Assembly (NCBI GenBank): GCA_964582295.1
Contig: CAZOQP010000002.1
Location: 82,268-146,267, forward strand
Direction of reading: 5' to 3'
DNA length: 64,000 nucleotides
Source: an uncultured Candidatus Saccharibacteria bacterium
GTDB lineage: Bacteria; Patescibacteriota; Minisyncoccia; Phycocordibacterales; Zambryskibacteraceae
The notes below the pieces were generated by a model. That model searched no databases. It saw only the letters and a program-made list of their open reading frames with translations, and was not told the DNA's origin. Shown here piece after piece: positions 8,806-46,394 of this stretch (position 1 is the first letter of the stretch; every line of letters starts with the position of its first letter). Position numbers and translations under genes: made by a program.

Positions 8806-8845
8806 AACTCAATCGTTTGCTTTCATTTCTAAACGTGAAGAATAC

Positions 8846-24600: not shown

Positions 24601-25611
24601 TTATATCCTAAACTCAATCACATCCCCATCCTGCACGATATATTCTTTTCCTTCTGTTCTCACCCATCCTTTTTCACGAGCGACAGCATAACTGCCGGCT
24701 TCTAAAAGATTATCGCAAGCCACCACCTCGGCACGGATGAATTTATCTTTGAAATCCGTGTGAATGGCAGTTCCAGCGATGGGAGCCGTTGAGCCGCGTT
24801 CTATAGTCCACGCACGAGTTTCATCTTCGCCTGTAGTAAAAAAAGTAATGAGATCAAGCAGGGCGTAGCTTTCTTTTATTAAACTATCCAAGCCCGTTCC
24901 AAAAACAGGGTCCACTTTCACAAAACGGCCAGGGATACTTGCCGCTATTTCATCCGCCACATTCTCCCCTGCTTCCGATGTATTCAGAATATAAAGAATT
25001 GGCTTCATGGTGAGAAGATGCATTCCTTGGACGATTTTCTTTTCTTCATCTGTTAGCCGCAAAGTATTTGCCATCTCTCCTTTCTTCAAAACCTCCGCCA
25101 CTTTACGAAGTACGGCTTCTTCTGCTATTGCTTCTTTGTTCCCCGCTTTCACATCACGTGCGAGATTACCTAATCGCTTTGTTACGGTTTCATCATCAGC
25201 CAACACCAACTCAAGATTGATAACACCGATATCTGAAAGTGGTTCCACTTTTCCGGCAACATGAATAATGTCGTCATCTTTAAAAGTGCGCACCATTTCA
25301 GCAATAGCATCCACCTCACGAATGTTCTGAAGAAATTTATTTCCGAGCCCCTCCCCTTCCGATGCACCTTTCACAAGTCCTGCGATATCCACGAATTCAA
25401 CGACCGCCGGAATTGTTTTAGGAGATTTGCTTAACTCCGTGAGTTTCCCCAAGCGTTCATCCGGTACCGGCACAATGCCCACAGATGGATCAATAGTACA
25501 AAAAGGATAATTCTCCGCTGGCACGCTCTTTTTCGTAAGTGTATTAAAAAGCGTGGACTTCCCCACATTCGGTAGGCCGACTATTCCGATGCTTAGAGCA
25601 GAATAAGACAT
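24601..25611 (-). CDS. ychF: ribosome-binding ATPase YchF (Obg-like)
   Basis: IGIVGLPNVGKSTLFNTLT P-loop and the C-terminal TGS-like IVQDGDVIEFRI. Confidence 0.9.
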   Translation of the reverse strand: MSYSALSIGIVGLPNVGKSTLFNTLTKKSVPAENYPFCTIDPSVGIVPVPDERLGKLTELSKSPKTIPAVVEFVDIAGLVKGASEGEGLGNKFLQNIREVDAIAEMVRTFKDDDIIHVAGKVEPLSDIGVINLELVLADDETVTKRLGNLARDVKAGNKEAIAEEAVLRKVAEVLKKGEMANTLRLTDEEKKIVQGMHLLTMKPILYILNTSEAGENVADEIAASIPGRFVKVDPVFGTGLDSLIKESYALLDLITFFTTGEDETRAWTIERGSTAPIAGTAIHTDFKDKFIRAEVVACDNLLEAGSYAVAREKGWVRTEGKEYIVQDGDVIEFRI

Positions 25612-27190
25612 TGCCTACGCGACTAACTGGTATGTTTCCATATACTTTTAATTCTTTTTGGTTTCCTACAATTCTATCAATCGTGTTCAATACTATCTCC
25701 CGTTTAAGCCCGAAATTCAAGTCCTTAAACACTTCACTCGCCTCTTTAGTAAATTCTTCGATCTCTGACTTATTAGGAATACCGAGAGAATTACTGTGGT
25801 TTCTCTCCTCTTTAGCTTTAGCCATTTGGGTCTCTACAGCTTCAATTCTCTCTCTTAGAGGGACCGTGTAATCCTTAAGCTGCTCGAGAGTAAACACCCC
25901 AGCACCATAAGCCTTGTTATATCTTTCTTCCTGCTCTTTGAGCTTCCTGACTTCTTTTTCAAGATCCTTAATATCAACCGAGGAACTTTCCGACTTCGAC
26001 TGCTGACCATTAAGCCAACCTTCGGCTTGTTTTAGTAAAAGTTCAGGCGAACTCATCAGCCCAGCTATTTTCTGCCACACGAGTTTGTCAGCTACCTTGG
26101 CACTCAAGCCCCCTTCAACACATTGGGTCGGAAGAGGAAATTGTTTGATCCTGTCATTACATCGGTAGTAAAGATAACGTCCACTTTTAGGACCACATCC
26201 GCATCTCCTAGATCCACAAGTGCACCACATCTTATTAGCCAGAAGAAATTCGTTCTTCCTGTTTCTTTTTGCTAAAGCAAAATTGGCTTCAAGTTGTCTA
26301 CGGGTGCGATCAAATAAATCTTTATCAATGATCGCTGAAATGGGAATGATATACCACTCGGCTTCTGGCCTATCTTTCCTACTAGTCTTTTTCTGCTTTT
26401 TATATTTTTGCTCTTTGTAAGGGTTCTCCGGCACTACAGCATAAGACTTGCCCCAATGTGCTTCTCCTATATATCCCTTGTGGCGAAGCATAGTAGTAAG
26501 AGTGCTTGTTGCCCACACGCCCTTCTTGCTCTTCCTAGGTTTTATTTTCATCTCCATCAACCTTTTCACCACACCCCGCATTGTCATACCTTCATCGGCT
26601 ATCCATTTGAAAATCATTCTGACGACTCTCGCCTCTTCTTCATTGATTTCGTAATAGCCGTGGACCTTCTCGTTCTTGCGAACATAGGTATATCCATACA
26701 AAGCTTCGGTAGTAAGGATATGACCTTCTTTTACTTTTCTTAATTTACCCAGCCTAAAACGCTCAGATATTTTTGCCCTCTCGTATTGAGCGAACAGACC
26801 CTTTACTCCGTGCAAAATCCTATCTTCATCATTTTTTGGAGCAGGAGTGGTTACAAATATCACTTCGATATTTGCTTCTCTGAGTTCATCCATTACCAGC
26901 TCTTGATATGAATACCTACGAGCAAGCCTGTCTGGATCATAGACCAGAACCGCTTCCCACATCTTACTTTTGGCATCTACACGAAGCTGGTCCAAGTCCG
27001 GCCTGGCCAAGCTATCGCCACTCCAACCATCATCTTTATATTCTTTGACTATCGTATAGCCATTCTTTTGAGCAAACTCTTTAACCGCGGCAATCTGAGT
27101 CTGAATAGTCTGATTTTCCTCCTGGTTGGAAGTTGATACTCTGTAATAAGTTGCGATCAGCTTTTTGATTTGTGGAGTGGATGGGTTCAT
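25544..27190 (-). CDS. large serine recombinase (integrase)
   Basis: N-terminal resolvase domain YYRVSTSNQ...LVYDPDRLAR, a recombinase domain, and a C-terminal Cys-rich/coiled-coil region. Confidence 0.85.
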   Translation of the reverse strand: MNPSTPQIKKLIATYYRVSTSNQEENQTIQTQIAAVKEFAQKNGYTIVKEYKDDGWSGDSLARPDLDQLRVDAKSKMWEAVLVYDPDRLARRYSYQELVMDELREANIEVIFVTTPAPKNDEDRILHGVKGLFAQYERAKISERFRLGKLRKVKEGHILTTEALYGYTYVRKNEKVHGYYEINEEEARVVRMIFKWIADEGMTMRGVVKRLMEMKIKPRKSKKGVWATSTLTTMLRHKGYIGEAHWGKSYAVVPENPYKEQKYKKQKKTSRKDRPEAEWYIIPISAIIDKDLFDRTRRQLEANFALAKRNRKNEFLLANKMWCTCGSRRCGCGPKSGRYLYYRCNDRIKQFPLPTQCVEGGLSAKVADKLVWQKIAGLMSSPELLLKQAEGWLNGQQSKSESSSVDIKDLEKEVRKLKEQEERYNKAYGAGVFTLEQLKDYTVPLRERIEAVETQMAKAKEERNHSNSLGIPNKSEIEEFTKEASEVFKDLNFGLKREIVLNTIDRIVGNQKELKVYGNIPVSRVGNVLFCSKHRNSRPTECGEVHAF

Positions 27191-27375
27191 TTTTTATTTC
27201 TATGCTTATCGAGAAATTTTTTGACCTCCTCTTTTGGGATACGCCACATCGCGGTTTTCCCAGTGCCAAGCTTATAACCCTTGAGAATGCCGCGATTAAG
27301 CCAGCGGTCTACTGTTCGAGAATTAACTCTTAGACTTTTTGCCACCTCGTCATTTGTTAAAAATTCCATAATCAT
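27187..27375 (-). CDS. excisionase-family HTH DNA-binding protein
   Basis: LTNDEVAKSLRVNSRTVDRWLNRGILKGYKLG...WRIPKEEVKKFL is an excisionase/MerR-like HTH. Overlaps the recombinase start by 4 nt. Confidence 0.65.
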   Translation of the reverse strand: MIMEFLTNDEVAKSLRVNSRTVDRWLNRGILKGYKLGTGKTAMWRIPKEEVKKFLDKHRNKK

Positions 27376-27555
27376 ATTATATACCTAGTTGTTCAAAGAT
27401 GCCTTAGTGGCTGTTGATAACCTCCTTCGCCTCATTACTTCTTCAAAAAGCACGGCGAATGCTTTATCGAGATTCCGCTCTCCGCCTTCTACTTGAACAT
27501 ATACAATTTCAGGAGTTGGAAGATGCTTATTTTTCTTCGACGGAGTTTTCATAAA

Positions 27556-28734
27556 TTACTCCGTCTCAGGCGTTATTGATAAACCGATGGGTTCAAACTT
27601 TTCAAGAGCTGCACTAACAAAAGAAATACAGTTAGAGTAAGGCAGCCCCTTAGCCAAGAGTGAAGCTGTCTCAATTTTCTTTGTTAAACGCTCCGTGTGA
27701 TCTCCATTCCAACGAGAAGAGATGACGCCCTTCACTTCTTTAGCTCCGTGCTCAATAATGGCAACGGTTAATCCATAGGAGATCAAGCCATTATTCATAC
27801 TATGAGCCCCTCCCTGCTTACCTGCCTCAGAGAGGATATGGAGGAAAAGATTAAGTTTATCGACCGGACCTAGGAGAGCTAACTGATTGGCGGGGCGACT
27901 TACAATGTCCCGCCAGGATTTATTTACGATTTTCTGAAAGAGACTAGGGGTAAATAGATCAGAAAATACAACAAGTTTAGTCCCATCTCGTTCCAACACA
28001 GAATTAAGCTCTCGCTTAACTGTGGCCGTTTTCTTAATCCGATATTCGTATCTGAATATTTCGCTATCTTGAAGACCGTGCCTTTCGACAAAATTTCTTT
28101 CTCGATTGATACGAGCCTTATCTGTGCGCTTATTTTTTGGTCTGGTTGAGTCAGAGATCTTGTCGTAAATTGAACGTTCAATGGTGCCGGAATAGATATT
28201 CAACACCCGCCCTCCTTTCTTAAACCTCGTGTCAGAAATATCTACCACCTTACTTATATCCACCTTAATAAGTTCGTTGAGAATCTCCCTCAACTGCATT
28301 TTCTTAGGCAACAGAACATTTTTGCAGAAATGGGCGGCAGATACAGAAGCCTTGGCGATTACCGAAGTTTCGATGAGTATCCCTGCATCAAGGAGGGCTG
28401 ATCTCAAGCGGTTAAAGACTTTTTCTTTATCGCTTTCCCGGACTTCTTGAATACTATTCCCGTATAGCAGCTTAGGAACAGAGAACTCGATCTTTAGGAT
28501 ATAGCGCATATCCTTTTTGTCCTCGGTTAAAGCCTCAAAGATTTCTATTCGCGGACGATAGCGATCCTGCTTTGGAGGGCGGAAGGTAAACCTCTTGAGA
28601 TATGGACGCAATGACTGACGCTCAGTCGGAGACAAATCCCGATAAGTTCGTGAGATAAGCTCGGGAACATACCAAGATAAATGCTTTATCTTAAATCTGC
28701 CCGGACCGGGGATTGTGAGAATGACAGTATCCAT
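27556..28734 (-). CDS. hypothetical protein (possible replication/initiator protein of the element)
   Basis: Basic 392-aa protein directly downstream of xis-int. No conserved motif confidently recognised. Confidence 0.3.
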   Translation of the reverse strand: MDTVILTIPGPGRFKIKHLSWYVPELISRTYRDLSPTERQSLRPYLKRFTFRPPKQDRYRPRIEIFEALTEDKKDMRYILKIEFSVPKLLYGNSIQEVRESDKEKVFNRLRSALLDAGILIETSVIAKASVSAAHFCKNVLLPKKMQLREILNELIKVDISKVVDISDTRFKKGGRVLNIYSGTIERSIYDKISDSTRPKNKRTDKARINRERNFVERHGLQDSEIFRYEYRIKKTATVKRELNSVLERDGTKLVVFSDLFTPSLFQKIVNKSWRDIVSRPANQLALLGPVDKLNLFLHILSEAGKQGGAHSMNNGLISYGLTVAIIEHGAKEVKGVISSRWNGDHTERLTKKIETASLLAKGLPYSNCISFVSAALEKFEPIGLSITPETE

Positions 28735-28771
28735 AGGAGTTTTGGTTGTTGTCGGTAGATTTCAAGGAATC

Positions 28772-29047
28772 CTATAGATCGGAGTAGAGTCTGTTCTTAA
28801 GAGCTTTCAGGTTGTCGAAATACGAACGCGCCGAAACTTTTAGAGTATCGGCAAGGTAGGCATCTGCTACAGTCTCAATTCTCTTGGTTCTTTTGAAGGT
28901 AAGGCGAGCCTTATTGGGATTAGTCTTATCCAGAAATAAAAGCCTGAACCCAAGACAGACAAGTGCCGCCGAGAGGCCGAGGTCATAGGTGTAATAGATT
29001 TCCGAGTCTCCTGTCGAATAGAAAACTTCTTTTTTCTTCGTGGTCAT
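28772..29047 (-). CDS. small hypothetical protein
   Basis: 91-aa ORF with AT-rich codon usage consistent with the host. Confidence 0.4.
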   Translation of the reverse strand: MTTKKKEVFYSTGDSEIYYTYDLGLSAALVCLGFRLLFLDKTNPNKARLTFKRTKRIETVADAYLADTLKVSARSYFDNLKALKNRLYSDL

Positions 29048-29230
29048 TGTAATTTTGATTAATTAATAAAGACCTGTCGAAGACAATATAAAAAAACCAC
29101 CGCACCCCACGCGAGGAGTGGGAAACGGTGGGACTAGTGGGGCAATAAAAGCTTATAAATTAAGGGTAATCGGACCAATCCACCAAAATTAAAATCGCCC
29201 GTCCCTCCTGTTCACACCAGATTTAGAGAA

Positions 29231-29731
29231 TTAATTAATGACTGACAACCACACTTTCAGTGAGTCAGATTCCAGCTTGAGCTTGGGTATATTTTTCACT
29301 TTCTTCTTATGTGCGCTAATAACACGCTGAACCTCTTTAAATGTCCCTTTGATGGCTGATTCTTTCTCCGATCTCCCCCTATAGGCATCTGCGGAGGTTT
29401 CATCTCTCCCATTCGTATTCATCTGCTCGAAAATAGCATCCATAGTTTTAGCTGTCCCAAATGGAGTGCACAATGCTTCTAGGAGTCTAAACTTGTTGGT
29501 CCTACAACCTCCAACTTGGATTTTCTCTCCTCCCAGGATTAAGTAGCCATTGTCTTTCTCTATCAAAGTATGCGGCTTGTCCTTAGACTGCCCTATAGCT
29601 GGTGAGGAATTTTCAGAAATATCATCAATCTCTTCAAAATGAAATTGAGCCTTATATTCTTCATAAAGCTTTCCAAAGTCCTTTGAGAAATTGATTCTTA
29701 AAATAGTATCCATATCATTCAAATTCGCCAA
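29231..29731 (-). CDS. hypothetical protein
   Basis: 166-aa ORF overlapping the upstream 542-aa ORF by 17 nt, consistent with operon coupling. Confidence 0.4.
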   Translation of the reverse strand: MANLNDMDTILRINFSKDFGKLYEEYKAQFHFEEIDDISENSSPAIGQSKDKPHTLIEKDNGYLILGGEKIQVGGCRTNKFRLLEALCTPFGTAKTMDAIFEQMNTNGRDETSADAYRGRSEKESAIKGTFKEVQRVISAHKKKVKNIPKLKLESDSLKVWLSVIN

Positions 29732-31343
29732 AAAACTCGAAGTTTCTAATCAAACCTTTATCCTGGAAGTGCCTGAGAACACTTTCTAGCTGATGGGCAT
29801 TGAGACTAGCCTCCCTCATCCATCTATTCCAATCGCTTTGAGGTATATCAATTTGACCTTGTTCTAGATCCCATTCCTCCTTTAGATGCTCGAGAATGAG
29901 CAATCTCTTCTTATCAGCATTATTTGGCTCTCTTTTACTATCAGAAGAAGACTGGGGTGAAGATATAACATTATCTGCAAACAAGCAGAGCTCAACAACT
30001 TTCGCTCTATATTCATTGAACTTATCTCTGTTTTTTACGAGAATATTTCTTCCCTCCACAAACTCTCGAGCCGGTTCGCTACTTATGACGGCAAGACTTA
30101 CCTCGCTTTGAAAACCCAGAGCCCCATTATCAAAGGCGCTTCTCATAACATAGTATAAAGTTCTTTTGTTATCCTCAGAAACCTTGTCCGCAATATTGAT
30201 AGCCTTGTTTATTCGACCAATAGGTGGAAGTTCGTCGTATATAAGATCAAGTATATTTTTTACGGCATACCATCTGTCCTTTTCTTTCTTGAGATCATCG
30301 GGGAACTTTAACGAAGAAACCCTGGATTTCTCTTTCTCTATATCCAGAATTTCCTTTGGAGGGTGCTTGCTGGGGTCTGGGAACTCGTCGGTAAGTTTGA
30401 AAACAACCTCCTCTTTTCTGAAATTCTTTATTGCTAGATTCCCAGCTCTAGCCAAGGCGATGATTGTCTCGTAAAAACGAATATGGTTCTTATCTATTTC
30501 CCAACCACCGAGCTTAGCTAACTCGTTAAAAGTCAAAGCAAGATTCCTGTTGTCATACTTTTTAGAAGCAATCAGTATGGAAGCGCATATCTTTTCTCTT
30601 TGTTGCCTATAGCCGTAATACCTAACACCCCTTGGCTGGTCCAGTTCGTTGAGCATAAAGGCGGTAATATATCCATCGAGTTTTTTGAAGAGTTCTACTT
30701 TATTGATCTTCAAGTTAAAGGTCAAAGCTTTCCAAATTTGGTCTATTGCTCCTCGTTCCGCAAAGATTTTTATATCAACAATTGAGAGCTCCTCTCCATT
30801 TTTAACTTTATTGAAAAGTTTCTCCCCCAAGGAACAAAAATTGTCTATTCTATAGCTTTTTGTAACTTTGCCTGTGCTCGGATGATGGGAAAAGGCCATA
30901 CTTCGAGCAATGAGGTTAGCTTTTTCTTTTTGCGCAGCAATCTTGCGCTCCTCACTTTGATAGTAATCCAGATAACCTTTCGGAATACGAATATTAGATA
31001 TTGTTACTGGCTTAGTAAAGTTATCGTGTAGCTCGATCAAAGCCTTTAAAACCTCCTGGGGACGGAAGTAATAATATCGGTTCTCCAGGTTATCGTGCGG
31101 GCCAATGTCAGTTTTCATTAGCCGCTTCTCAATTCGAGCCAAATAGGCTTCTCTTTCTATCAAATCTACTGACCCTTGTGCTTCCTCAGCTATAAGATCA
31201 CGCTGTTCTGATTCCTCAAAGAAAATAAAATCGCTTACTCTATAGTTTCTCCCCTCAAGCTCATCACTGAGCAGAAGTTTCTCCCAAAGATAAACTTTCC
31301 ATTCAGGCAAATAATGGGTAATTTTCATTGTAATTTCCTTCAA
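29715..31343 (-). CDS. hypothetical protein (542 aa)
   Basis: Long ORF with no recognisable motif. Confidence 0.45.
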   Translation of the reverse strand: MKEITMKITHYLPEWKVYLWEKLLLSDELEGRNYRVSDFIFFEESEQRDLIAEEAQGSVDLIEREAYLARIEKRLMKTDIGPHDNLENRYYYFRPQEVLKALIELHDNFTKPVTISNIRIPKGYLDYYQSEERKIAAQKEKANLIARSMAFSHHPSTGKVTKSYRIDNFCSLGEKLFNKVKNGEELSIVDIKIFAERGAIDQIWKALTFNLKINKVELFKKLDGYITAFMLNELDQPRGVRYYGYRQQREKICASILIASKKYDNRNLALTFNELAKLGGWEIDKNHIRFYETIIALARAGNLAIKNFRKEEVVFKLTDEFPDPSKHPPKEILDIEKEKSRVSSLKFPDDLKKEKDRWYAVKNILDLIYDELPPIGRINKAINIADKVSEDNKRTLYYVMRSAFDNGALGFQSEVSLAVISSEPAREFVEGRNILVKNRDKFNEYRAKVVELCLFADNVISSPQSSSDSKREPNNADKKRLLILEHLKEEWDLEQGQIDIPQSDWNRWMREASLNAHQLESVLRHFQDKGLIRNFEFFGEFE

Positions 31344-31526
31344 ATTTACCCCTTATTTGCCTGTTTTACAATAAAAGATCCGAAAGTTTAGCTCACTTAT
31401 TACGTTTATATTGCTATCCACACTAATGCCTTGAATATGGCATTTTAAGGGAAATCGAGCTATACTATAGCTACTCATCTACCACGAGTAGAAGGAGCAT
31501 CCGAAACCGTCCCGCAAGGGGCGGTT

Positions 31527-32033
31527 TCAGCCTTTTATACGGTTCTGTCTATATTCTTCTCTATCTCGTTCGAATGACTTTATGCGGCGAGGATCAGTTA
31601 CTTGGTAAGCACTAAGTAAAACAAAGTATTGGCTTCTTTTTGCTAAGACTACTGCAAATTGGCCTTTCTCATACCAAATAACCCAATTCTTAGAACTACC
31701 TCTTCTGCTCTCCCAATAGGAAATTATTGACTCATTTTCACAGTTCTTGATAATCCAAGACACCCATCCGATCCGCTTGCAACGCTGGAAGTCAGGAGTT
31801 CTATCCTCTTCTTTTTCTCCCTCTGTTATTAAATGCCAGAAAGTAAAATGTTTCCCTTTCTCCTCAGGGAATCGCCTAGGATTGACTGGTAAGCCTTGAA
31901 AGCGCAACTTATCTTCAACAATAGTCTTCTTAAACACCTCAAAGAGACTTTCTTCATAAGCCTTCCATTCTTCTGTCCGACCGGAGAATTCTATTAATTC
32001 AGGTGGAGTTACATCTATTTCTTCGGACGCCAT
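31527..32033 (-). CDS. hypothetical protein
   Basis: 168-aa ORF overlapping the DUF3800 gene by 19 nt. Confidence 0.4.
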   Translation of the reverse strand: MASEEIDVTPPELIEFSGRTEEWKAYEESLFEVFKKTIVEDKLRFQGLPVNPRRFPEEKGKHFTFWHLITEGEKEEDRTPDFQRCKRIGWVSWIIKNCENESIISYWESRRGSSKNWVIWYEKGQFAVVLAKRSQYFVLLSAYQVTDPRRIKSFERDREEYRQNRIKG

Positions 32034-32713
32034 ATCAGGATATTGAATTTAGACTCATCACGAGATGAGGAGGTGAGCATAACCTCTCCTATCTTGCTCT
32101 CGATCTCTTTAATAACTTGGACCTTGCCACTATTTTTATTAAGACCTCTATGCTTATAAGAAAGTGCACCAGCGAAAATATCGACAAGCTGCATAATCTC
32201 CACCTCATTGGACCTAATCTGTTGTGCTCTGGAGATTGCAATATCCTCTACGCTGGCAATATTGAGTATGCGCTTAAGCTCCATAACCTTTAGATTGCTC
32301 CTGGTATCCTTCATATCAAGATAAAGGTTATACTCCGCATCTTCTCTTATAATAAATTTAAGAAGAAGGTAGAACATCTTGTAATACCAGGTATTGTGAT
32401 CTTGAGAGTAGGCAGAATGGTCAAGAACCGTCTTATCCGGCACCACCACTACCCTAAAATGAAGATCGGGATTATCGAAGAAGTATCTAACTAGCTCGCA
32501 ATAGTATTCAGCTTTTGCTTTGGAGATCTTTGTCCACTTTGCTTCAAAGTGGGGTGGAAGATTGTGCTTTTGCTTTATAGCTCGAATCTCCTCGAAGATT
32601 TGTGAGGTCTTCTCTTTCTCTGCCCATATAGCACCTAGCACAAAGGACTTATTTTTGTCGTTCAACAAGTGACAGCTCTCGTCGCAATAGATATTGTAGG
32701 TTGGCTTAGGCAT
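32015..32713 (-). CDS. DUF3800-family protein
   Basis: N-terminus YNIYCDESCHL and C-terminal QLVDIFAGALSY resemble DUF3800 (DESG...ADxxAG). Confidence 0.5.
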   Translation of the reverse strand: MPKPTYNIYCDESCHLLNDKNKSFVLGAIWAEKEKTSQIFEEIRAIKQKHNLPPHFEAKWTKISKAKAEYYCELVRYFFDNPDLHFRVVVVPDKTVLDHSAYSQDHNTWYYKMFYLLLKFIIREDAEYNLYLDMKDTRSNLKVMELKRILNIASVEDIAISRAQQIRSNEVEIMQLVDIFAGALSYKHRGLNKNSGKVQVIKEIESKIGEVMLTSSSRDESKFNILIWRPKK

Positions 32714-32724
32714 ATTGGTTTTGA

Positions 32725-33357: not shown

Positions 33358-33474
33358 AGTCTTATACCTAATTAATAAAATCTGGCCCGTATTTTACACT
33401 CGAAGGTAAAAATGGAAACGGCACCCATTTAGGATGCCGTTCACGTCTAGCGATCTCGCTATAAAAAAGGAAAG

Positions 33475-34374: not shown

Positions 34375-34441
34375 ATTTTAATTATGACACGTCAAAAATA
34401 CTCAACTCGCTTGCGAATTGGTATTTACTTGTCTGCTCACT

Positions 34442-34996
34442 TTAGCGGCTACCTGATGCTGCTACTGCCGCAAGCTGTGCTTGAAGCAACTGTATCGCCT
34501 GTTGTATCAGTCCCACAACTCGGGTCTTAAGACTTGCAACCTCTGGACTCTCGACGGTAGTAGATACTACGGTGCTGTTAAGCTGGGCTAGAGTCAGATT
34601 ACCCACATAACCAGTAGTAGGTATGTTGTGTGCTGCCTGATAAGCCATTACTGCCGCCTGGGTAATAGTTCCGAAGTATCCGGTCGGTTCAACACCGAAG
34701 AACCCCTCTGCCTTTAACAGCTTCTGAAGTTCGGTTACTTCTTCCCCTCTAGAACCAAGAGTAAGATGAGAGTCAAACCTGAAACCTGCCTCTCCCAAGA
34801 CTGAACCTGTGTTGATTTGAGCCACAGGAGCAGCCACTACTGGAGGTCTGTTAAACTGTCCAGATCTACCACCAGTTCTGATTACTGAAGGAGGGATTAT
34901 ACCTCCTCCACCTCCACCATACTGTGCATAGCTCGGAGTGGGCATTGCTACAGCAATCAAAGCGGTAATAGCTAATGTTCCAATTATTTTTTTCAT
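34442..34996 (-). CDS. secreted protein with peptidoglycan-binding (PG_binding_1-like) domain
   Basis: Signal peptide MKKIIGTLAITALIAVA, a Gly run, and LGSRGEEVTELQKLLKAEGFF...GYFGTITQAAVMAYQ. Confidence 0.55.
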   Translation of the reverse strand: MKKIIGTLAITALIAVAMPTPSYAQYGGGGGGIIPPSVIRTGGRSGQFNRPPVVAAPVAQINTGSVLGEAGFRFDSHLTLGSRGEEVTELQKLLKAEGFFGVEPTGYFGTITQAAVMAYQAAHNIPTTGYVGNLTLAQLNSTVVSTTVESPEVASLKTRVVGLIQQAIQLLQAQLAAVAASGSR

Positions 34997-35057
34997 TTCC
35001 TTGGATGGATTTACTTTTAATCGCCTAGTTTAACGACTTGTGGCAGGTCGTAGAGAG

Positions 35058-36347
35058 TTACCCCCGAGTAACCCAGCGTTTGTCTCTGGCTGTAAACAAG
35101 GCGTATATGTTGAGCCAATAGAGAAATAGCTCGCGGAGAATTGAATAGACAAATAACCTCCACACCTTCTCTTTGCCCTCTAGGTAAACAAAAATATAGT
35201 GGACGAACATAAACAGGAACCAGCTCGGGAGTATAAATATGAGGAAGAATAACGGCTGGGTAAATATGACAAACAAAATCGCAACTCGTAAGCCAAAGGT
35301 AAAGAATAGCAAGGTTAAATCCCATAAGAGCATTTCAAAAAAGAGTTGCTTTCTGCTTCCCCAAGCATAAGTAAGAGCGTAGATTGCCTCACGGATAAAA
35401 CCTCTCTTCCATCGTAACTGCTGCCTCAAGAAGCTCCTGACAGTCGCTGGAGTTTCTGTATAAGCAATAGCCTCTGCCACATAAGCCACCTCATACTTAC
35501 GCTTTAATATGAGATTTGTTAAGTGCCTGTCGTCAGAGGAGTTGCATTGTTCTCCCAAGAACTCTTGATTTAGAAATTCATCAATTATTTCCTTAATTAT
35601 TGAGGCTTTGTATGCTGATAAGCATCCACTACAGCACTCAACCATCCCTACTGAAGATTGGGCTTTCTTATATACATTCAAGCTAATCCAATAATGTATT
35701 TTTATCAGTCTGGTAAGCCAATTCTGGTTTTCATTCAAGAGAAGTATGTAGCCAGTTGATGCTCCTACACGAGGGTCTTTTAGTGGTTCTACTAATCTCA
35801 CTAAAGCATTCTCATCAAGCACGGTATCACTATCAACTGTTATCACAAATTCACTATCCTGAACCATTTTTGATACTGCGTGATGAAGAGCGTGCCTTTT
35901 ACCCTTATTATTTTCAAAGAGGTGAATTTCAATTTGCGAGTATGTCTTTTGGAGATCCCTTACGACTTTTTCTATTCCCTCTCTTATATCCTTTTTTGAG
36001 CCATCATCAACAAGTAGAATTTTCTTATTTCCTTTGGCGGCAATTATAGACTCTAGGGATTTCTTTAAGAGTTCAGGACGTTCGTTATAACAAGGCACTA
36101 CCACTGCAATAGTTTCATTGTCGTAAGAGGGATATTTGGTTTTCCTAATATCACTTAGGAATAGAAGACCGAAAATATACCAAGTGTAAGTTATAGCTAG
36201 AACAAAATAGACACGAGCGTAAATTGTCCAAAGATTATCATTTAAAGTGATGAAAGAATGGAGGAATACAAAAATAGAAATCCCAAGCAGGACGAATAAA
36301 CATAGGTATATAAGCAACATCAACTGACTATGAGTTATTTTCGGCAT
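35058..36347 (-). CDS. family-2 glycosyltransferase, processive type
   Basis: DDGSKKD, VTVDSDT (DxD), and QQLRWKRG (QxxRW), with multiple TM helices. Confidence 0.7.
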   Translation of the reverse strand: MPKITHSQLMLLIYLCLFVLLGISIFVFLHSFITLNDNLWTIYARVYFVLAITYTWYIFGLLFLSDIRKTKYPSYDNETIAVVVPCYNERPELLKKSLESIIAAKGNKKILLVDDGSKKDIREGIEKVVRDLQKTYSQIEIHLFENNKGKRHALHHAVSKMVQDSEFVITVDSDTVLDENALVRLVEPLKDPRVGASTGYILLLNENQNWLTRLIKIHYWISLNVYKKAQSSVGMVECCSGCLSAYKASIIKEIIDEFLNQEFLGEQCNSSDDRHLTNLILKRKYEVAYVAEAIAYTETPATVRSFLRQQLRWKRGFIREAIYALTYAWGSRKQLFFEMLLWDLTLLFFTFGLRVAILFVIFTQPLFFLIFILPSWFLFMFVHYIFVYLEGKEKVWRLFVYSILRELFLYWLNIYALFTARDKRWVTRG

Positions 36348-36679
36348 ATGTCCTTAGAAGAAAACCTCCAAGAGACCATATGTCGTAAATAACGAAAGCA
36401 TCAAGAAGACGATTACCCAGGTTATTTTCTTTTCTGTGCTCACTTGGATGGATTTGATTGTCTTACGCACAAAGCCCGCCGCCAGGAGCTCTAGGCTTTC
36501 GCCCAGAACGTATAGGTTTCCCCATACGACCATCCAAGGAACCCTGACGACGGGTTTTCTGACTTGGATGGTTTTAGAGCCGTGCCTCTTACGAGGGTTA
36601 GGCTAATTTCCCTACACTTTCACTCACAAGTCAAACTATATTATAATACCCCTATATTGTCAAGGAAAATACGTGGATA

Positions 36680-37711
36680 CTAAAACCAGCTAATCCTTTT
36701 CATCAATTTCTGAGTATTCCCGTGTCTCAAAAGACCTAGGTAAGACTGAATTGTTTCTGTCTTCGCCTCTTTTGCTTGGACAGCATTTAGGGCTCTCCTC
36801 TTAGTTGTAGTCCTTACCACCCGGTGATCAGGAAAATTAACCCAGCCGAGGAAGTCCACTCCAGAGGCGACAGTTTTGGTAAAGACTTTATCCGGGTGAA
36901 GTTCTAGTTTCAATTTTTTCCCAAGAAACTGCCGAATAGTAACCAGGACATTATCCAGCTTCTTCTTATCACCGGAAAGGATAACGAAATCGTCAGCGAA
37001 GCGAATATAGCGCTTGATTTTTAATTCTCTTTTAACAAATTGATCGAGCTCGTTCATATAGATATTTACGAGCAGTTGCGAAGTAAGATTACCTAGTGGC
37101 AATCCCATCCCTTCTTTGACTGGCTGGAAACTATCAACAATCTGATCAAGTAGCCAAAGAATATCCTTGTCAGGAATGTAGTGCTTGAGAATATCTTTCA
37201 GGACGGCGTGATCAATCGTAGCGAAGAACTTCTTTATATCGCACTTCAAAATCCAGACGGTTCTCGTGTGGTTCTGACTCTCGATATAAGCGAAATTCCT
37301 AAATTTCTCTATAGCTTTGTGTGTTCCTTTCTCCAAGCGACAGGAGTAAGAGTCGTGTATAAAAGTCCGGTCGAAAAAGGGATAGAGCACTCTATAAATC
37401 GCGTGATGAAGTAGCCTGTCTCTAACGGCTGCTTTGTGTATATTCCTGGGTTTAGGATCGGAGATATTAAAGGCTTGATAAGGCGAGTGTCGGTAGGTTT
37501 TCTCGGCGAGATCTTTATTTAAAGCTATGATATTACTCATCAAGTTTCGCTCAAAGATCTGCACATCCTTCCTTGAACGCTTACCATTTAGAAACTCCTT
37601 CCAGGCTTGGAGAAGATTTTCAAGAGAAATGATATGCTCATATTTATGAACAAGCCGAATACCCATATAGGTGAGTCTACCCCCCCCCCGCACTTTTGCC
37701 AGTAGTAGCAA
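36680..37711 (-). CDS. DGR-type reverse transcriptase
   Basis: RT motifs: ISDPKPRNIHKAAVRDRL, CDIKKFFATIDH, GLPLGNLTSQLLVNIYMNELD ([I/L]GxxxSQ, typical of DGR RTs), and YIRFADDFVIL (YxDD). About 340 aa with no maturase/endonuclease. The true start is probably the internal Met MGIRLV. Confidence 0.85.
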   Translation of the reverse strand: MLLLAKVRGGGRLTYMGIRLVHKYEHIISLENLLQAWKEFLNGKRSRKDVQIFERNLMSNIIALNKDLAEKTYRHSPYQAFNISDPKPRNIHKAAVRDRLLHHAIYRVLYPFFDRTFIHDSYSCRLEKGTHKAIEKFRNFAYIESQNHTRTVWILKCDIKKFFATIDHAVLKDILKHYIPDKDILWLLDQIVDSFQPVKEGMGLPLGNLTSQLLVNIYMNELDQFVKRELKIKRYIRFADDFVILSGDKKKLDNVLVTIRQFLGKKLKLELHPDKVFTKTVASGVDFLGWVNFPDHRVVRTTTKRRALNAVQAKEAKTETIQSYLGLLRHGNTQKLMKRISWF

Positions 37712-38045
37712 AAGTTAAAAATTGTTATTTAACTTGGATTACTTACCAAAACAATCTGCCAAAAGTGCAGAAATATTCTCTCGGTTTAAGAATTGAGAGT
37801 CTGTTCGTGGAAACAATTGAAGCAGCATCTATCGCTTGGTTTCTTCCCCAGCAGGAGAAGCAACCTTATATCCGTTTAGCCATAAGGAAATGGGACACTC
37901 TCAAAGTCTTACTGCTAATTCTCTGGGAGGCAAAAGGTATCGATAATAAAAAATATATTAACTTATCCGTTCCTATGGAAGAAGTAGGAAGGATGCTTGG
38001 AGGATGGAATGGGCAGATCACTGCTAAACAAAACTCCCCTGCAAG

Positions 38046-38181
38046 AGCAGGAGAGAAATGAAAAGACTTTCGGGGCGAGGAACACGAAACCGTTCTCACG
38101 ATTCCACCTGTTGTCGGAGTTGCCGTTGTAGGCGTTGAGCCACCGGCCTTCGTCGTTGCGGTTGAGACCGAGAACGTTCGG
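38046..38181 (-). repeat. DGR template repeat (TR), 136 bp
   Basis: Aligns to 38593..38728 with 19 mismatches, all at TR T on the given strand (A on the coding strand). Its pseudo-ORF is Asn(AAC)-rich: GNPNVLGLNRNDEGRWLNAYNGNSDNRWNRENGFVFLAP. Confidence 0.8.
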
Positions 38182-38469
38182 ATTGCCATCGGAATCGGTT
38201 ATGTATAAAGCACCTCCCGCGCCACTACCCATAAGAGAGCACCAGGCTCAATCCACAGGCTGTATCGAATGCCGCATCGTAATGCGATAGTGCTCTATAC
38301 CAAGTATCTTCATTTTTTGAAGAGTCTACATAAGCCCTCCGTCTGAAACCGTAGTCTCAGGCGCTCTCAGCTTATGGATACTGGGGTCGGTAGCGGGACA
38401 CCGTAGCCTCCCGCATATTCACCTACTGCCGTTGCTTATCTTAATTGAAATTTTTTACAAAAGGAAAGC

Positions 38470-38490
38470 CCGAGCGAAGTGCTCGGGCCG
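38470..38490 (-). other. GC hairpin gcccgag-cgaagtg-ctcgggc ~100 nt downstream of the VR (candidate DGR cruciform/homing element)
   Basis: 7-bp GC stem. Its position downstream of the VR is analogous to the hairpin required for retrohoming in the Bordetella phage DGR. Confidence 0.3.
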
Positions 38491-38587
38491 GAGTTTGGGA
38501 CACGCTGTTCTCCAGAGCGTGATGGGCGCGGGGCCCAAGGGCAAAGGTCAAAGGATCTAAAAGACCCAAGTGACCAAGTGCTAAGAA

Positions 38588-39253
38588 CTACTCTTGCGGG
38601 GCGAGGAACACGAAACCGTACTCACGACCCCACCTGTCGTCGGAGTAGCCGAAGTAGGCGTCGAGCCACCGGCCCGCGTCGACGCGGAGGAGACCGAGAA
38701 CGATCGGAGGGCCATCGGAATCGGTGATCGGCTCGTGCATCACGATGAGCCAGTAAAGTCCCATCGCGGCGATCTCTTCGTCGGAGACAGACTTCCGCAA
38801 CAGCCGAGCGAGTTCGGCTGTCGGCGTGATGAGCCCCATCTCCTCGGCAACCTTGCGGATGTTCGAGGTGACGCGCTCGTCGTCGGTGAAGCACTCACCT
38901 TTGAGCACCACAGGCTTGTAGGTCACGCCATTGCTGACGACGTAGGACTTCTGCTTCATCACGTCCTTGGCCCAGTCGCCCACGTTGTAGCGGGCCTTCT
39001 CGAGGTCCTTGATGCCGTCCTTACCGGAGACACCGTCGGAGACCACGAGATTGAGCGCCACCGGCGTGATGACATTCTTCTCCGGGGCCTTCGGCTCGAC
39101 CATCTTGATCTCGGCGCGTCCTTCGAGGAGCGCCTTAACCGACGTGAGCCGCCCCCGGGAGGTCAGTGCCTTGAGCTGGTCGGCCGTGAAGCCGTCCGCC
39201 TCGAAAGCGTCTGCCAGTTCGTTCATCTGTCCGATCGTGTAGAGTGAGGACAT
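38588..39253 (-). CDS. DGR target (variable) protein; C-terminal variable region, likely C-type-lectin/FGE-like fold
   Basis: C-terminal ITDSDGPPIVLGLLRVDAGRWLDAYFGYSDDRWGREYGFVFLAPQE corresponds to the TR. The gene is conspicuously GC-rich compared with its flanks. Start taken at MSSLYT (ORF track starts at 39313). Confidence 0.8.
   Translation of the reverse strand: MSSLYTIGQMNELADAFEADGFTADQLKALTSRGRLTSVKALLEGRAEIKMVEPKAPEKNVITPVALNLVVSDGVSGKDGIKDLEKARYNVGDWAKDVMKQKSYVVSNGVTYKPVVLKGECFTDDERVTSNIRKVAEEMGLITPTAELARLLRKSVSDEEIAAMGLYWLIVMHEPITDSDGPPIVLGLLRVDAGRWLDAYFGYSDDRWGREYGFVFLAPQE
38593..38728 (-). repeat. DGR variable repeat (VR) at the 3' end of the target gene
   Basis: See TR. The VR ends at the target stop codon (38588..38590). 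Confidence 0.8.
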
Positions 39254-39422
39254 CGTCCCCTCCTTGGCACATCGTGCCTGTTTGTGATTAACGATTGCTG
39301 GGCCCCTTGCCACAGCGGAGAAAGCCCATTTAAGGCTCTTTCCGCTATGGCAAGTAAGAGTAGTTATTACAAAGATCTACTATTGTTAGTATAGCACCTT
39401 TTGGCTTTTCTGTCAAGGACTG

Positions 39423-39788
39423 TTAATCGAAGGGGGTAGAAATTCCTGCTGCGCGTCCTACTTCAAAAATCACCCTCGCTTCTAGTTGTCTTACCCGGTT
39501 GCCGCTTATGCCTCCAAAGTTCTTACCAGTCTCCGCAAGTGTATGTCGGACACCATCTTTTAATCCGTTTCGGAACTCAAACATCTCACAATACCTCTCC
39601 TTAAGTTTTAAGAGGTGCTTTAACTCTTTATAGGGCTGGATGAATGCCTCGGCGACCGGCTTTCTCATAGTTTGATTATAACCCTTGTCAAAGGTATAGG
39701 CGAGTGTTAATCTACTCCTGCGCGGAAATTTTGGCTCTAAGCGGAAATTCTGTTTTTGCTCTGAAATATCCCATATTACCAATGACAA
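39423..39788 (-). CDS. hypothetical protein
   Basis: 121-aa ORF with no motif recognised. Confidence 0.35.
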   Translation of the reverse strand: MSLVIWDISEQKQNFRLEPKFPRRSRLTLAYTFDKGYNQTMRKPVAEAFIQPYKELKHLLKLKERYCEMFEFRNGLKDGVRHTLAETGKNFGGISGNRVRQLEARVIFEVGRAAGISTPFD

Positions 39789-40663
39789 ATACCTATATGA
39801 TGAAAATAAAACCGCTCTTTAGGGACCTCCCTATTGAGCACGTGGAACGCGACCCAGACCAGCCGCGCCGAGATTTCGGAGTTGGCGGAGACCAGAACAG
39901 GCTCCTGAAGTCTATAGAGACTTATGGCATTGAAGAACCTATTAAGGTGAGTGAGGTTGAGAAGGATCGGTATGTGATTGTCGATGGGCATCGTAGATAT
40001 ATTTGCGCCCAGAGATTAGATTTAAAGACCATCCCCTGCCGAATCTATCCAAAGATGACTGATGGAGAGCTTGAGGCTCGAAGATATGAAATACAGAACA
40101 ACCGAAGAAATTGGAAACCTATGGAGAAATCCAACTCCCTCCATAGAATCAAAACCAAGTTTGGTTTGAATACCAATAGAGAGCTTGCGGATGTTTTAGG
40201 TCTCTCGATTACCATTATTGCTAACTCTCTTCAGATTAGAGATGTAAAAGTAGATTATGTAGAGCTGATGGAAAAGTATGGCCTCTCACAAAGCAATCGC
40301 ACTGAGTTTATCCGTCTCAAGAATAAGCTAAGAAAAATAAAGGACCTAGAAATCGACGACATAGTTCAGATCATTTTTGAAAAGACTCAGAACAATGTTA
40401 TCCGAAATGCTAAGGACTTTCGCAAGTTGGGCAAAATTTTCTTGAGAGCTACTGCCAATGAAAAGGAGCTCTACGCCTTTCTTACCGATCCGGATATGAC
40501 TATCGATGAGCTAGATCAGAGGACCATTCAGTCCGGCTTTTCACTCCTTGTCGAACAAGCAATCCAGGCCATAGCTTCAAAGCGTAAGGATGGAATCGCA
40601 TTCAGTTCAAAGGAAAAGACTCTTCTTACTCAGCTTCGTAATCTCCTACAAAAGGCATTCTAG
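39782..40663 (+). CDS. ParB-like nuclease (ParB/Srx) domain protein
   Basis: IEHVERDPDQPRRDFG...LLKSIETYGIEEPIKV...YVIVDGHRRYICAQRL is a ParB N-terminal domain. Start uncertain; alternative ATGs at 39704 and 39794. Confidence 0.6.
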   Translation: MTNTYMMKIKPLFRDLPIEHVERDPDQPRRDFGVGGDQNRLLKSIETYGIEEPIKVSEVEKDRYVIVDGHRRYICAQRLDLKTIPCRIYPKMTDGELEARRYEIQNNRRNWKPMEKSNSLHRIKTKFGLNTNRELADVLGLSITIIANSLQIRDVKVDYVELMEKYGLSQSNRTEFIRLKNKLRKIKDLEIDDIVQIIFEKTQNNVIRNAKDFRKLGKIFLRATANEKELYAFLTDPDMTIDELDQRTIQSGFSLLVEQAIQAIASKRKDGIAFSSKEKTLLTQLRNLLQKAF

Positions 40664-40666
40664 TTT

Positions 40667-42007
40667 ATGTTGTCTATTAGCCAGGCTCGGACTCGAAAAG
40701 CAGTAGCATATTACCGACATTCAGCGGAAGACAAACAAGAAAACTCGGTTGGTATTCAACGTGGGCACGCAGAGAAATTTGCTAAGCAGTTTCAAATTGA
40801 AATAATCCACGAGGAAGCTGACGAGGGTAAAAGTGGCCTTCTCTCAAACAGGCCTGGATTCGAGAAGCTTTTTAACGATTGGATATTAAATGATACTGCT
40901 CCCGAATTTGAGTATGTGCTTGTTTATGACGTATCTCGGTGGGGCCGTTTCCAAGATCAGGATGAAGCTGCCTACTACGAGTTCAGATGTAAGCAAATGG
41001 GCAAAAAGGTCATCTATGTGTCCCGAGGCTTCCCCAAGGAGGAACAACAGCTTATAAGCCACCTACAGACCTCTATAGAGCGTTATATGGCGGCTGAATA
41101 CTCTCGTCAGCTCAGCGATAAGGTCTTTTACGGCTGCGTAAAGGTATCCGAACAGGGATACTCTGCCGGTGGCACTCCCTGCTATGGTATGGCCAGACTA
41201 CTCTTAGATGTAAATAAAAAGCCTATCCGCATACTTAAGAAAGGAGAGCATAAGCAGATTGCCAATGAGCGCGTAACATTTACCCCACTCAATGACAGCT
41301 CTACCAAGGCTATTCAAAAGATGTTTAGGCTTCTGGTGGAGGACTGGTATGACCCGAGCGAAATAGCCAGAGTGCTTAACGAAGAGAAGATTCTTTCAGC
41401 AAATGGTGGAAAATGGACTAGGGATAAAATAATTAAAATACTCACCAATGAGACCTACACTGGTGCCCGCATCTACAACAAAACCTGGCATAGACTTAAG
41501 CAGAAAATGAGACGTAATCCCCGCTCTGAGTGGGTCATCTCTGAAAATGCTTTTCCTGCCGTAGTTAAGCGAGAGATGTTTATCAAAGCCCAGGAGCATC
41601 TCTACTGGCTTATGCCTTCTAAGTGGAAGAGGGGTATCTACACAATCAGGAAGATAAATACTCTCTTTAAGGCAGAGACTCAAGACATTCTTCTGAAGAA
41701 GCAGATTGATGAGGATACTATCTACCACCTGATGAATGAACTACCACTCCTTTTCTGTGTGAGATTTTATCGAGACTCAGTGCCGCATTGGTGCTTTATT
41801 ATTCCTGAAAGAGTAAGAAACTTCGAGAAGGTGCTTGGGGTTAGCGTAAGCATCGACACCTTTGATCCCATCGAAAGAATATTCCTCATCCCAAGTTCTG
41901 ACTTCAACGAAGTAAACTGCCTTGTCTTTTCTGAAAGTGATCCTTGCTTTAAAGATTACATCATCGAGCGAGAGAATGTTAGGGACACGCTTTCAGCAAT
42001 CGTCTAG
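40667..42007 (+). CDS. large serine recombinase
   Basis: AVAYYRHSAEDKQENSVGIQR...LVYDVSRWGR resolvase catalytic domain plus a recombinase domain. Confidence 0.8.
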   Translation: MLSISQARTRKAVAYYRHSAEDKQENSVGIQRGHAEKFAKQFQIEIIHEEADEGKSGLLSNRPGFEKLFNDWILNDTAPEFEYVLVYDVSRWGRFQDQDEAAYYEFRCKQMGKKVIYVSRGFPKEEQQLISHLQTSIERYMAAEYSRQLSDKVFYGCVKVSEQGYSAGGTPCYGMARLLLDVNKKPIRILKKGEHKQIANERVTFTPLNDSSTKAIQKMFRLLVEDWYDPSEIARVLNEEKILSANGGKWTRDKIIKILTNETYTGARIYNKTWHRLKQKMRRNPRSEWVISENAFPAVVKREMFIKAQEHLYWLMPSKWKRGIYTIRKINTLFKAETQDILLKKQIDEDTIYHLMNELPLLFCVRFYRDSVPHWCFIIPERVRNFEKVLGVSVSIDTFDPIERIFLIPSSDFNEVNCLVFSESDPCFKDYIIERENVRDTLSAIV

Positions 42008-42238
42008 GGCTCTCCAAGTTTTACCTCTGTTTGATATTCCTCCAATCAGGTAAAGGGAGTTTGATTACGAAGGAGAATGGGATAAGTTTGCTCTGCTCTG
42101 ACCAGGTGGCGTGTCTTATTGTGTTCAGACTATGCCTATACTTAATTTCATTCCGAAATAATAGCTTAATTAAGCTATTTTACGAGCGGTTTTATTTTAC
42201 TCCGGTTTTATTTGAACCAGCCCTTTGGGTAATTATGT

Positions 42239-42634: not shown

Positions 42635-42641
42635 ATTGCAA

Positions 42642-43649: not shown

Positions 43650-43702
43650 ATTATTTTATTTATAGTGATTTATGGTGAGTCTGTCGAACCAGCGCAGTCG
43701 AA

Positions 43703-46000: not shown

Positions 46001-46001
46001 A

Positions 46002-46268: not shown

Positions 46269-46274
46269 GACTTC

Positions 46275-46302: not shown

Positions 46303-46394
46303 GTAAAGATAGTGGACAAAAGCACTTGACTTTTTCATATATCCTGTTATATAATAGGGATGGAACCCAACAACTAACCTCAGAGGTGATACCA

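Follow-up and report, generated by a model that had tools for sequence, protein, structure and literature searches.

A 16.5-kb serine-integrase island inserted at the start of ychF in a Patescibacteria chromosome

Between ychF and a copper operon, the 64,000-nt stretch of contig CAZOQP010000002.1 analysed here (referred to as the window) carries two genes for serine recombinases and, between them, an assortment of genes that includes a diversity-generating retroelement (DGR). Such an arrangement raises the question of whether this part of the chromosome is an integrated mobile element, which of the two recombinases brought it there, and where exactly it ends. An earlier annotation made from the sequence alone (referred to as the original prediction) had proposed an element of ~16.5 kb with its ends at 25544 and 42007. 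We confirm that the stretch is a genuine integrated mobile island in a Patescibacteria (Paceibacteria/Parcubacteria-like) chromosome. Both junctions can be read; they lie within ~130 nt of the proposed ends, which were nearly right and are corrected here to ~25587 and ~42135. The island occupies positions 25587..42135 of the window, i.e. 16,549 bp if counted between the inferred GG crossovers at both ends, and it very probably entered by recombination between attB, the host attachment site in the first codons of ychF, and attP, the attachment site of the element in the 3' end of the gene for the left-hand large serine recombinase (LSR1), which would have catalysed the reaction. It is a serine-integrase genomic island, and one of a widespread, so far undescribed family of such islands.

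Borders of the island and the split integrase gene

The integration target is ychF (24601-25611, minus strand; Pfam YchF-GTPase_C and MMR_HSR1), and the left junction falls within its first codons: the first 8-9 of them (MSYSALSIG) are supplied by the element, and host DNA begins at about Gly9. The adjoining LSR1 gene (25544-27190, minus strand) encodes a protein of 548 aa in its integrated form; its reading frame extends 68 nt into ychF, and the final 43 nt of this open reading frame (ORF), from which the last 14 residues are read in the other frame, are host ychF DNA. The core of the left junction site (attL) is CTAAGCATCGGAATAGTC (25579-25596, minus strand), with the inferred crossover dinucleotide GG at 25587-25586. 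A survey of YchF N-termini revealed two forms, M-x-L-S-I-G-I-V-G-L-P-N in genomes without the recombinase and M-S-x-S-x-L-S-I-G-I-V-G-L-P-N, three codons longer, in all recombinase-linked copies (~58 loci), while genomes with an empty site have the short form; because of this difference in length, the element must be taken to bring its own ychF start. The public YchF record (P0241, 321 aa) begins 15 codons downstream, at a GTG within the P-loop (window 25566-25611), and thereby loses residues of the GxxxxGKS motif; this start is an artefact, likely caused by the overlap of the LSR1 ORF with the true one. Exact-sequence look-ups of YchF as read from the window gave no match, gene callers having taken another start. 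A promoter-like site for ychF inside LSR1 (25680-25651) proved no better than chance.

At the right end, 128 nt beyond the stop codon of the second recombinase gene, LSR2 (42007), a pattern search revealed the displaced start of the host ychF, ATG AAA TTA AGT ATA GGC ATA GTC (MKLSIGIV) followed by the stop TGA, as the right junction site (attR; 42128-42151, minus strand), with the crossover GG at 42136-42135. In the 64 kb of the window it is the only match to a ychF-start pattern that lacks the P-loop, it lies on the same strand as ychF, and its sequence is of the short host type and agrees fully with the N-terminus of a relative (L001; L-numbers denote compared loci from genomes and metagenome contigs). 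The original prediction saw no att site and no direct repeats at the borders; in fact an imperfect 18-nt direct repeat is present at both ends, CTAAGCATCGGAATAGTC at 25596-25579 and TTAAGTATAGGCATAGTC at 42145-42128, 14 of the 18 positions being identical. A search for a second 5' fragment of ychF by blastn and tblastn gave no match that was statistically significant by itself, and the remnant was accepted only after the position-restricted pattern search, the N-terminus survey and the reconstruction of the integrase tail.

The profile matches of the protein encoded by LSR1 are those of an integrase. Its catalytic domain matches PF00239 (1.1e-31, residues 13-157) and includes a YYRVS motif with S19, it is followed by a Recombinase domain (PF07508, 1.6e-18), and, besides a weak match to Zn_ribbon_recom, a cluster of cysteines (CTCGSRRCGCG...YRC...QC) and a charged helical stretch are present; the phrog_95 integrase profile aligns with residues 8-512 (1e-98). 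The missing 3' end of the gene was found at the opposite side of the island (42021-42134, minus strand), where 37 codons and a stop (42023-42021, just 13 nt from the convergent stop of LSR2) encode a peptide ending in SKLIPFSFVIKLPLPDWRNIKQR. Joining position 25579 to 42127 yields an LSR1 of 572 aa with the same final residues and a tail like that of intact homologues: the 35 residues encoded by 42127-42021 match the extreme C-terminus of the intact L145 recombinase (AKLIPFSFTLKLPKPDWQTIKR, then the stop) with a BLASTP E-value of 7e-10, the match covering the last 25 residues of the latter. As joining of the ends restores a full-length recombinase with a homologue-type tail, attP is placed inside the LSR1 gene.

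The same joining also rebuilds a host-type ychF and a dyad-symmetric attP centred on GG, of ~50 bp and with the outer arms ATGTC...GACAT; the predicted junction strings are CTAAGCATCGGCATAGTCTGAACAC for attP and TTAAGTATAGGAATAGTCGGCCTACC for attB. The symmetry of the reconstructed attP about G|G amounts to 16/24, a score that among 20,000 centres drawn at random from the window is reached by a fraction of only ~3.5e-4. In 10 intact homologues the best symmetric centre within ~200 nt is the homologous G|G, where 13-19/24 positions match and the outer arms are again ATGTC...GACAT. An in-frame alignment is obtained between the reconstructed attB and the natural ychF starts of L173, L174 and L001. 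In ~60 attL sites the Ile-Gly codons nearly always read ATCGG or GTCGG, and later wobble positions vary as they do in empty genomes; GGCAT(C/A)GTC is common to attR of the window and to intact sites; and the two junctions of another two-ended element (L089, described below) have only TCGG in common. As these three observations agree, the crossover is placed at or next to the GG of the Gly codon (25587-25586 and 42136-42135). A symmetric attP that shares its central dinucleotide with the partner site is what characterizes the att sites of serine integrases.

The displaced ychF start sits between the LSR2 stop and a hairpin that follows the cupredoxin gene, which puts the copper operon outside the element; its inclusion, considered with regard to the ancestral order flavodoxin-ychF, was rejected for this reason. 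The operon (cupredoxin, DsbD/HMA, P-type ATPase and CsoR; 42239-46268), followed by a flavodoxin-like gene, forms the right flank (Pfam), just as ychF forms the left one, both as originally described. Most relatives lack this operon, which in the window separates the ancestral neighbours flavodoxin gene and ychF (42239-46498); possibly it was inserted at the same hotspot independently of the island and before it. Homologous cop genes are found 7.5 kb upstream of ychF in L044 (1130-2551).

The second recombinase had been proposed as the right-hand counterpart of the first. It belongs to a portable cassette of 2.6 kb (39423-42007) comprising a gene for a small helix-turn-helix (HTH) protein (39423-39668/39788, minus strand), a ParB gene (39704-40663 or, in the shorter delimitation, 39782-40663, plus strand; Pfam ParB_N and HTH_ParB) and LSR2 itself (40667-42007, plus strand). 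That a serine recombinase follows the ParB gene is correct: LSR2 matches PF00239 (9e-12) and PF07508 (3e-21), and its YYRHS motif is invariant in 24 homologues. Its assignment to the large type does not hold in the canonical sense, since neither a zinc ribbon nor a coiled coil was recognized: there is no match to PF13408, the PHROG integrase profile ends at residue 312, and the C-terminal 130 residues are poorly conserved in the alignment of the 24 homologues, with just one nearly invariant Cys and no Cys cluster. LSR2 is 22% identical to LSR1. The ParB protein scores 71 bits against TIGR00180 (cut-off 58.45), and a Pfam scan of the element found no ParA-like gene to complete a ParABS system.

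These features invite a composite explanation, according to which the HTH/ParB/LSR2 unit is an independent mini-element nested beside attP and the presence of two recombinases at the two ends is a coincidence. L169/L170 match exactly the stretch 39423-41994 with 78% DNA identity while their flanks are unrelated, and the ParB-recombinase pair recurs at 56-68% identity in other Patescibacteria (L163, L166 and L171) and in Chryseobacterium (L165), usually near other integrases, while all other loci of the LSR1 family are devoid of it. In L165 (Chryseobacterium lathyri JAHXYG010000005.1), where the pair is 56% identical to LSR2, it is bracketed by imperfect direct repeats of ~170 nt (8749-8917 and 11420-11589), 2671 nt apart, which duplicate the 3' end and the stop of an upstream gene for a 500-aa protein; to judge from the sequence, the pair there resembles a site-specific insertion of 2.7 kb that is complete in itself. 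On the other hand, such repeats are confined to L165; a search of the sequences flanking the cassette gave none in the window, L163, L166 or L171. The layout of L166, in which a Rep-like gene, a DGR (59% identity in the reverse transcriptase), ParB and the recombinase accompany a different zinc-ribbon LSR, parallels that of the window and suggests a functional association, e.g. in partition and multimer resolution of an excised replicon, and the 13 nt between the stops of LSR2 and the LSR1 tail also speak against the composite explanation. We therefore give the composite explanation somewhat less than an even chance. LSR2 does not set the border of the island, which is defined by LSR1 alone, and it may be either a nested hitch-hiker or part of a maintenance module (partition plus multimer resolution) of the excised circle.

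A family of islands at ychF and the mobility of the present copy

A scan of metagenome contigs yielded 80 homologues of LSR1 at 52-79% identity. Where downstream sequence was informative, 58 of 77 adjoin ychF, with the P-loop motif at the same place relative to the end of the recombinase gene, and most of the homologous loci have an HTH_17 gene directly upstream of it. The hosts are very diverse, their YchF proteins being 47-71% identical to that of the window, and similarity of the recombinase to LSR1 is uncorrelated with similarity of YchF to that of the window (rho -0.22, n=38), which argues for mobility of the family. About 19 homologues do not adjoin ychF; nine of them show a mimic of the ychF start, M-x-S-L-x-I-G-I-V, followed by unrelated sequence. 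In 17 of these 19 the recombinase ORF runs ~35-45 codons further to a conserved tail, ...R-H...[S/A]-K-[L/I]-I-P-F-x-F-x-V-x-L-P; of the remaining two, L160 has no such tail and the L084 locus ends just 116 nt past the match. Copies with an intact tail and an un-recombined attP, away from ychF, occur in L156 (a 689-kb contig), L154 (248 kb), L145, L150, L100, L126 and L136, some of these contigs being chromosome-sized; another integrase, a plasmid state or mis-binning are the candidate explanations for unused attP copies in long contigs.

A second element with two recognizable ends is found in L089 (~11.4 kb). There, a host-type stub (MPLSIG) lies ~9.8 kb upstream of the recombinase gene, as ATGCCACTATCAATCGG followed by the recombinase tail ending in NPKLIPFSFEIKIPAYKRH and a stop. 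Its backbone is the same as in the window (DUF5659, the Rep-like gene, HTH_17 and the recombinase), while its cargo is different, comprising a Bro-N protein and a type III restriction-modification pair.

Genomes without the island are found among the relatives of the host. The order of the genes downstream of ychF (leuS with a NUDIX insert, a sigma-like gene, YceG and mnmA) is conserved in dozens of them. The closest YchF proteins in a large protein collection are 83-84% identical to that of the window and 333 rather than 336 aa long; their contigs share the downstream synteny and contain no gene of the element. More distant relatives, at least 12 in number, have the flavodoxin gene as the immediate upstream neighbour of ychF. 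Among species-representative genomes the best YchF matches are 58-75% identical, all with Paceibacteria/Parcubacteria-type names. The stretch is thus polymorphic between relatives and the intervening genes are no part of a core genome, in agreement with the original prediction; the inserted segment is discrete, lies at a specific site, has recognizable junctions and is absent in related genomes. In the window, leucyl-tRNA synthetase (21124-23961, minus strand) carries the NUDIX domain after its editing domain (residues 390-502), and the same architecture was called in L173 and L174. These two loci (YchF 83%) also show an attR-like scar, ATGTCTAAACTTTCTATAGG followed by a recombinase tail with DKLIPFEFTIKLPP (L173, 1155-1290; L174, 1149-1284), 7.4 kb upstream of a short-form ychF without a recombinase; genes for an ATP-grasp protein, an aminoacyl-tRNA synthetase-like protein, a methyltransferase and a peptidase lie between. 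A 28,185-nt Logan contig from run SRR6868922 contains the cop side, LSR2 and the interior of the element in the same order, corresponding to about 19952-48136 of the window by coordinate arithmetic, the ychF/LSR1 end not being in the retrieved part, and a 209-kb NCBI contig is on record for YchF together with a 392-aa protein of the element. The GC content is 0.40-0.43 within the element and 0.44-0.47 outside, a contrast too slight to be counted as evidence.

Several observations weigh against the reading of the island as an LSR1-driven element, or at least against its present mobility. The zinc ribbon of LSR1 scores below the Pfam cut-off (PF13408, 22.3 versus 25.3 bits), and the reconstructed attB is barely symmetric (5/24). 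The nearest empty sites are as distant as 83-84% YchF identity and have different upstream neighbours, so that the exact pre-insertion DNA is a reconstruction. No excised circle and no empty site from the same population was found among the contigs covered. The recombinase gene of L089 (10001-11644) has an internal stop near 10670, which divides it into ORFs of 222 and 317 aa and represents either decay or a sequencing error. In L005 (~9860-10000), L030 (85-196) and probably L038 (upstream of 2379), all species-representative genomes, a long ychF N-terminus is accompanied by a remnant of only ~40 aa of the recombinase C-terminus; these are scars of decayed elements. With such decayed members in the family, the copy in the window could be immobile as well. 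The element would then have been inserted as described and be fixed, maintained for its cargo and for the working 5' end of ychF, with the tail-less LSR1 inactive, and the excess of integrated over intact-attP copies (58 versus ~19) is in line with this. However, LSR1 is a complete ORF of 548 aa with its catalytic motif and a match to the integrase profile over its full length, the reading frame of the detached tail remains open and conserved, and the lack of correlation between recombinase and host divergence argues for continuing mobility of the family. We regard fixation as possible and rather unlikely; that the element can currently excise, replicate and transfer is what we infer for an LSR1-driven island.

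A prophage or phage satellite is a very remote possibility: the integrase and the excisionase-like gene match phage-type profiles, several cargo genes match PHROG families and DGRs are common in phages, but PHROG scans of the element found no capsid, portal, tail or other virion structural gene and no packaging or lysis gene (the sole hint of a terminase being a partial match at 0.008), neither recombinase has a relative among IMG/VR viral contigs, and the size of 16.5 kb together with a Rep_trans-like gene is more in keeping with a plasmid-like island; a PHROG scan of the intact-attP locus L110, meant to distinguish phage from plasmid, was uninformative. Finally, that LSR1 and ychF are an ancient, vertically inherited pair with a host function, e.g. 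as a switch of ychF expression, in an otherwise ordinary variable stretch of chromosome is hardly credible, because the recombinase is absent in most GTDB relatives, the closest included, its divergence does not follow that of YchF, the displaced ychF start and recombinase tail lie 16.5 kb away in direct orientation, and the strikingly uniform overlap of the two genes across such diverse hosts is explained by a fixed crossover point and the conserved TLFN codons of ychF.

Backbone and cargo

All genes listed in the original prediction were recovered by Pfam at their places, and comparison with related elements divides them into a conserved backbone, consisting of LSR1, HTH_17, the 392-aa protein and DUF5659, and swappable cargo. 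The HTH_17 protein (27187-27375, minus strand; PF12728, 2.7e-12), whose stop codon overlaps the LSR1 start, matches PHROG excisionase and regulator families, in keeping with its earlier description as excisionase-like; it is probably a regulator or directionality factor. The DUF5659 protein (28772-29047, minus strand; Pfam 1.3e-9) recurs beside the Rep-like gene in related elements.

The 392-aa protein (27556-28734, minus strand) had been suggested as a possible replication initiator. This was upheld as far as the fold is concerned, which is that of Rep_trans rolling-circle initiators, and not with regard to sequence: it has no Pfam match, and four divergent members of its family failed to match PF02486 even at E<5. 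Exact-sequence look-ups gave no match, while 242 unannotated homologues were identified, syntenic with the recombinase in many loci. Both a sequence-profile search and Foldseek were negative for this family against the PDB, so that the Rep_trans assignment stands at the level of fold only. Compared with known Rep_trans initiators (pT181 RepC/RepD, RepSTK1; PDB 4cij, 4cwc), it has ~130 additional helical residues at the C-terminus and no similarity detectable by sequence profiles. Invariant in the family are Y190, K192, E225, R228, E230 and R232, among them the Tyr of a YDK motif and the residues of an R-x-E-x-R motif further along, two motifs that we presume to resemble those of the RepC/RepD active site. 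MOB_T relaxases of integrative and conjugative elements (ICEs) and integrative and mobilizable elements are relatives of Rep_trans initiators, and the 392-aa protein is probably a divergent rolling-circle initiator with this fold, or a relaxase, of the excised circle. In a study of type IV secretion loci of Patescibacteria the absence of a relaxase was noted and a "very different relaxase" was considered (PMC12102498), which makes this family of at least 242 members worth testing. Pfam and PHROG profile scans of the element found no gene for a type IV secretion system, a coupling protein or a recognized relaxase.

The cargo begins with two proteins of 166 and 542 aa (29231-31343, minus strand) without significant family matches; the latter was considered as a backbone component and rejected, as it shows no relationship to the 550-aa protein that occupies this place in L089. 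The three-gene DUF3800 cassette that follows (31527-33357, minus strand) is present as described and could be further matched by PADLOC to the candidate anti-phage system PDC-M04: PDC-M04B (168 aa; 31527-32033; 5e-51) and PDC-M04A, the DUF3800 protein (32015-32713; 6e-84, Pfam 1e-12), are encoded by adjacent, overlapping genes and are accompanied by a 210-aa protein with a weak HTH. A defence role is predicted for this region, which also matches phrog_16230 and phrog_3732. It is followed by envelope genes for a CAP-domain protein, a PG_binding_1 protein and a family-2 glycosyltransferase (33475-36347, minus strand; Pfam).

The DGR (36680-39313, minus strand) is genuine. It comprises a reverse transcriptase (RT; 36680-37711; RVT_1 1e-23, phrog_1423 5e-111), a template repeat (TR; 38067-38202) and a target gene of 241 codons (38588-39313) with the variable repeat (VR; 38593-38728) at its 3' end. 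TR and VR, 136 nt long, are 86% identical and every mismatch falls at a TR adenine, so that by its sequence the DGR is active-looking. No Avd was recognized by Pfam in the window; two small ORFs that overlap the TR (37866-38189 and 37963-38232) have no Pfam match, while a bAvd is present in the related locus L166. Homologues of the RT occur in two related elements, L086 (48% identity) and L166. DGRs are reported to be abundant in genomes of Patescibacteria (the candidate phyla radiation), and the present one resembles them in its RT, in the adenine-specific differences between TR and VR and in a small target gene with a 3'-terminal VR; it differs from them in being demonstrably the cargo of a site-specific integrative element. 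In L050 (3765-4745, 10898-12077), another Patescibacteria genome, a short-form ychF has a DGR RT (47%) at a distance of 1 kb upstream and PG_binding and CAP homologues a few kb downstream, i.e. the same types of cargo are found around ychF without the recombinase. A near-consensus promoter-like site (39388-39416, minus strand; TTGACA-17-TGnTATACT, 11/12) adjoins the left border of the ParB/LSR2 cassette and is oriented into the DGR target gene.

A self-splitting integrase and its relatives

According to the established biology of serine integrases, LSR1 would have recombined attP with attB at the GG core. The left half of attP would serve at once as LSR1 coding sequence, as an out-of-frame mimic of the ychF start and as half of the recombinase binding site. 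Integration would leave ychF intact, with a 5' end supplied by the element and three codons longer, directly downstream of and overlapping LSR1, and would strand the original start as a dead stub at the far end. LSR1 would lose its final 37 codons to the same place and acquire 14 codons from ychF in their stead. All these changes would be undone upon excision, which would depend on a directionality factor; HTH_17 is the obvious choice for this role. Rolling-circle replication or mobilization by the Rep-like protein, transcription of ychF from the element and a regulatory role of the tail swap are speculative.

In its domains (catalytic resolvase, recombinase domain and a putative Cys-rich zinc-ribbon region), in the ~50-bp dyad attP with a non-palindromic central dinucleotide, in the simple attB inside a gene and in the small DNA-binding protein encoded beside the integrase, the system resembles known serine-integrase elements (phiC31, Bxb1, A118, SPbeta SprA, SCCmec Ccr, Tn4451 TnpX). 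These named integrases are only distant from LSR1, NCBIfam scores for CcrB and XisF being far below the cut-offs. The island differs from them in that attP lies in the 3' coding sequence of the integrase itself, whose C-terminus is altered upon integration; we know of no other serine integrase of this kind, and a literature search found neither such a case nor a paper describing ychF-targeting serine integrases or the present family. SXT/R391 ICEs, which integrate in the 5' end of prfC, likewise use a conserved translation-related target and keep it working by an element-supplied 5' end, but with a tyrosine integrase and a full conjugation apparatus, whereas the present island has a serine integrase and no visible transfer genes. 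An attP inside an element gene whose product is altered by integration and restored by excision is also known from SSV1, where it lies in the integrase, and from the integration-dependent immunity of the mycobacteriophages BPs and Brujita (in BPs it lies in the repressor). These are, however, tyrosine recombinases of an archaeal virus and of actinophages, and in SSV1 the integrase is split in two large parts, while here only the last 37 residues are exchanged.

The position of attP suggests a bolder idea, namely that it acts as a built-in state switch between a free LSR1 of 572 aa with the conserved tail (K-L-I-P-F-x-F-x-x-x-L-P) and an integrated isoform of 548 aa with a host-encoded tail, which would differ in activity, stability or directionality; integration would also put ychF under the transcriptional control of the element, and the Rep_trans-fold family could be the missing relaxase of Patescibacteria. 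We consider this set of proposals improbable as it stands; if true, the enzyme would "know" whether it is integrated.

Patescibacteria have tiny genomes and no means of genetic manipulation, and their mobile elements are poorly described. The family is widespread and precisely definable, by base-pair junctions and by a predictable attB at the P-loop start of a universal gene, ychF, and its self-splitting integrase is unusual. A single attP carries three kinds of coding information and changes the C-terminus of the integrase upon integration; the functional meaning of this change is testable. LSR1 with its attP/attB pair is a candidate genetic tool for these organisms. On a simple backbone these islands carry swappable cargo, which is type III restriction-modification in one member and comprises a DGR and a candidate defence system here, and they provide a concrete route for the movement of DGRs and defence genes among Patescibacteria.

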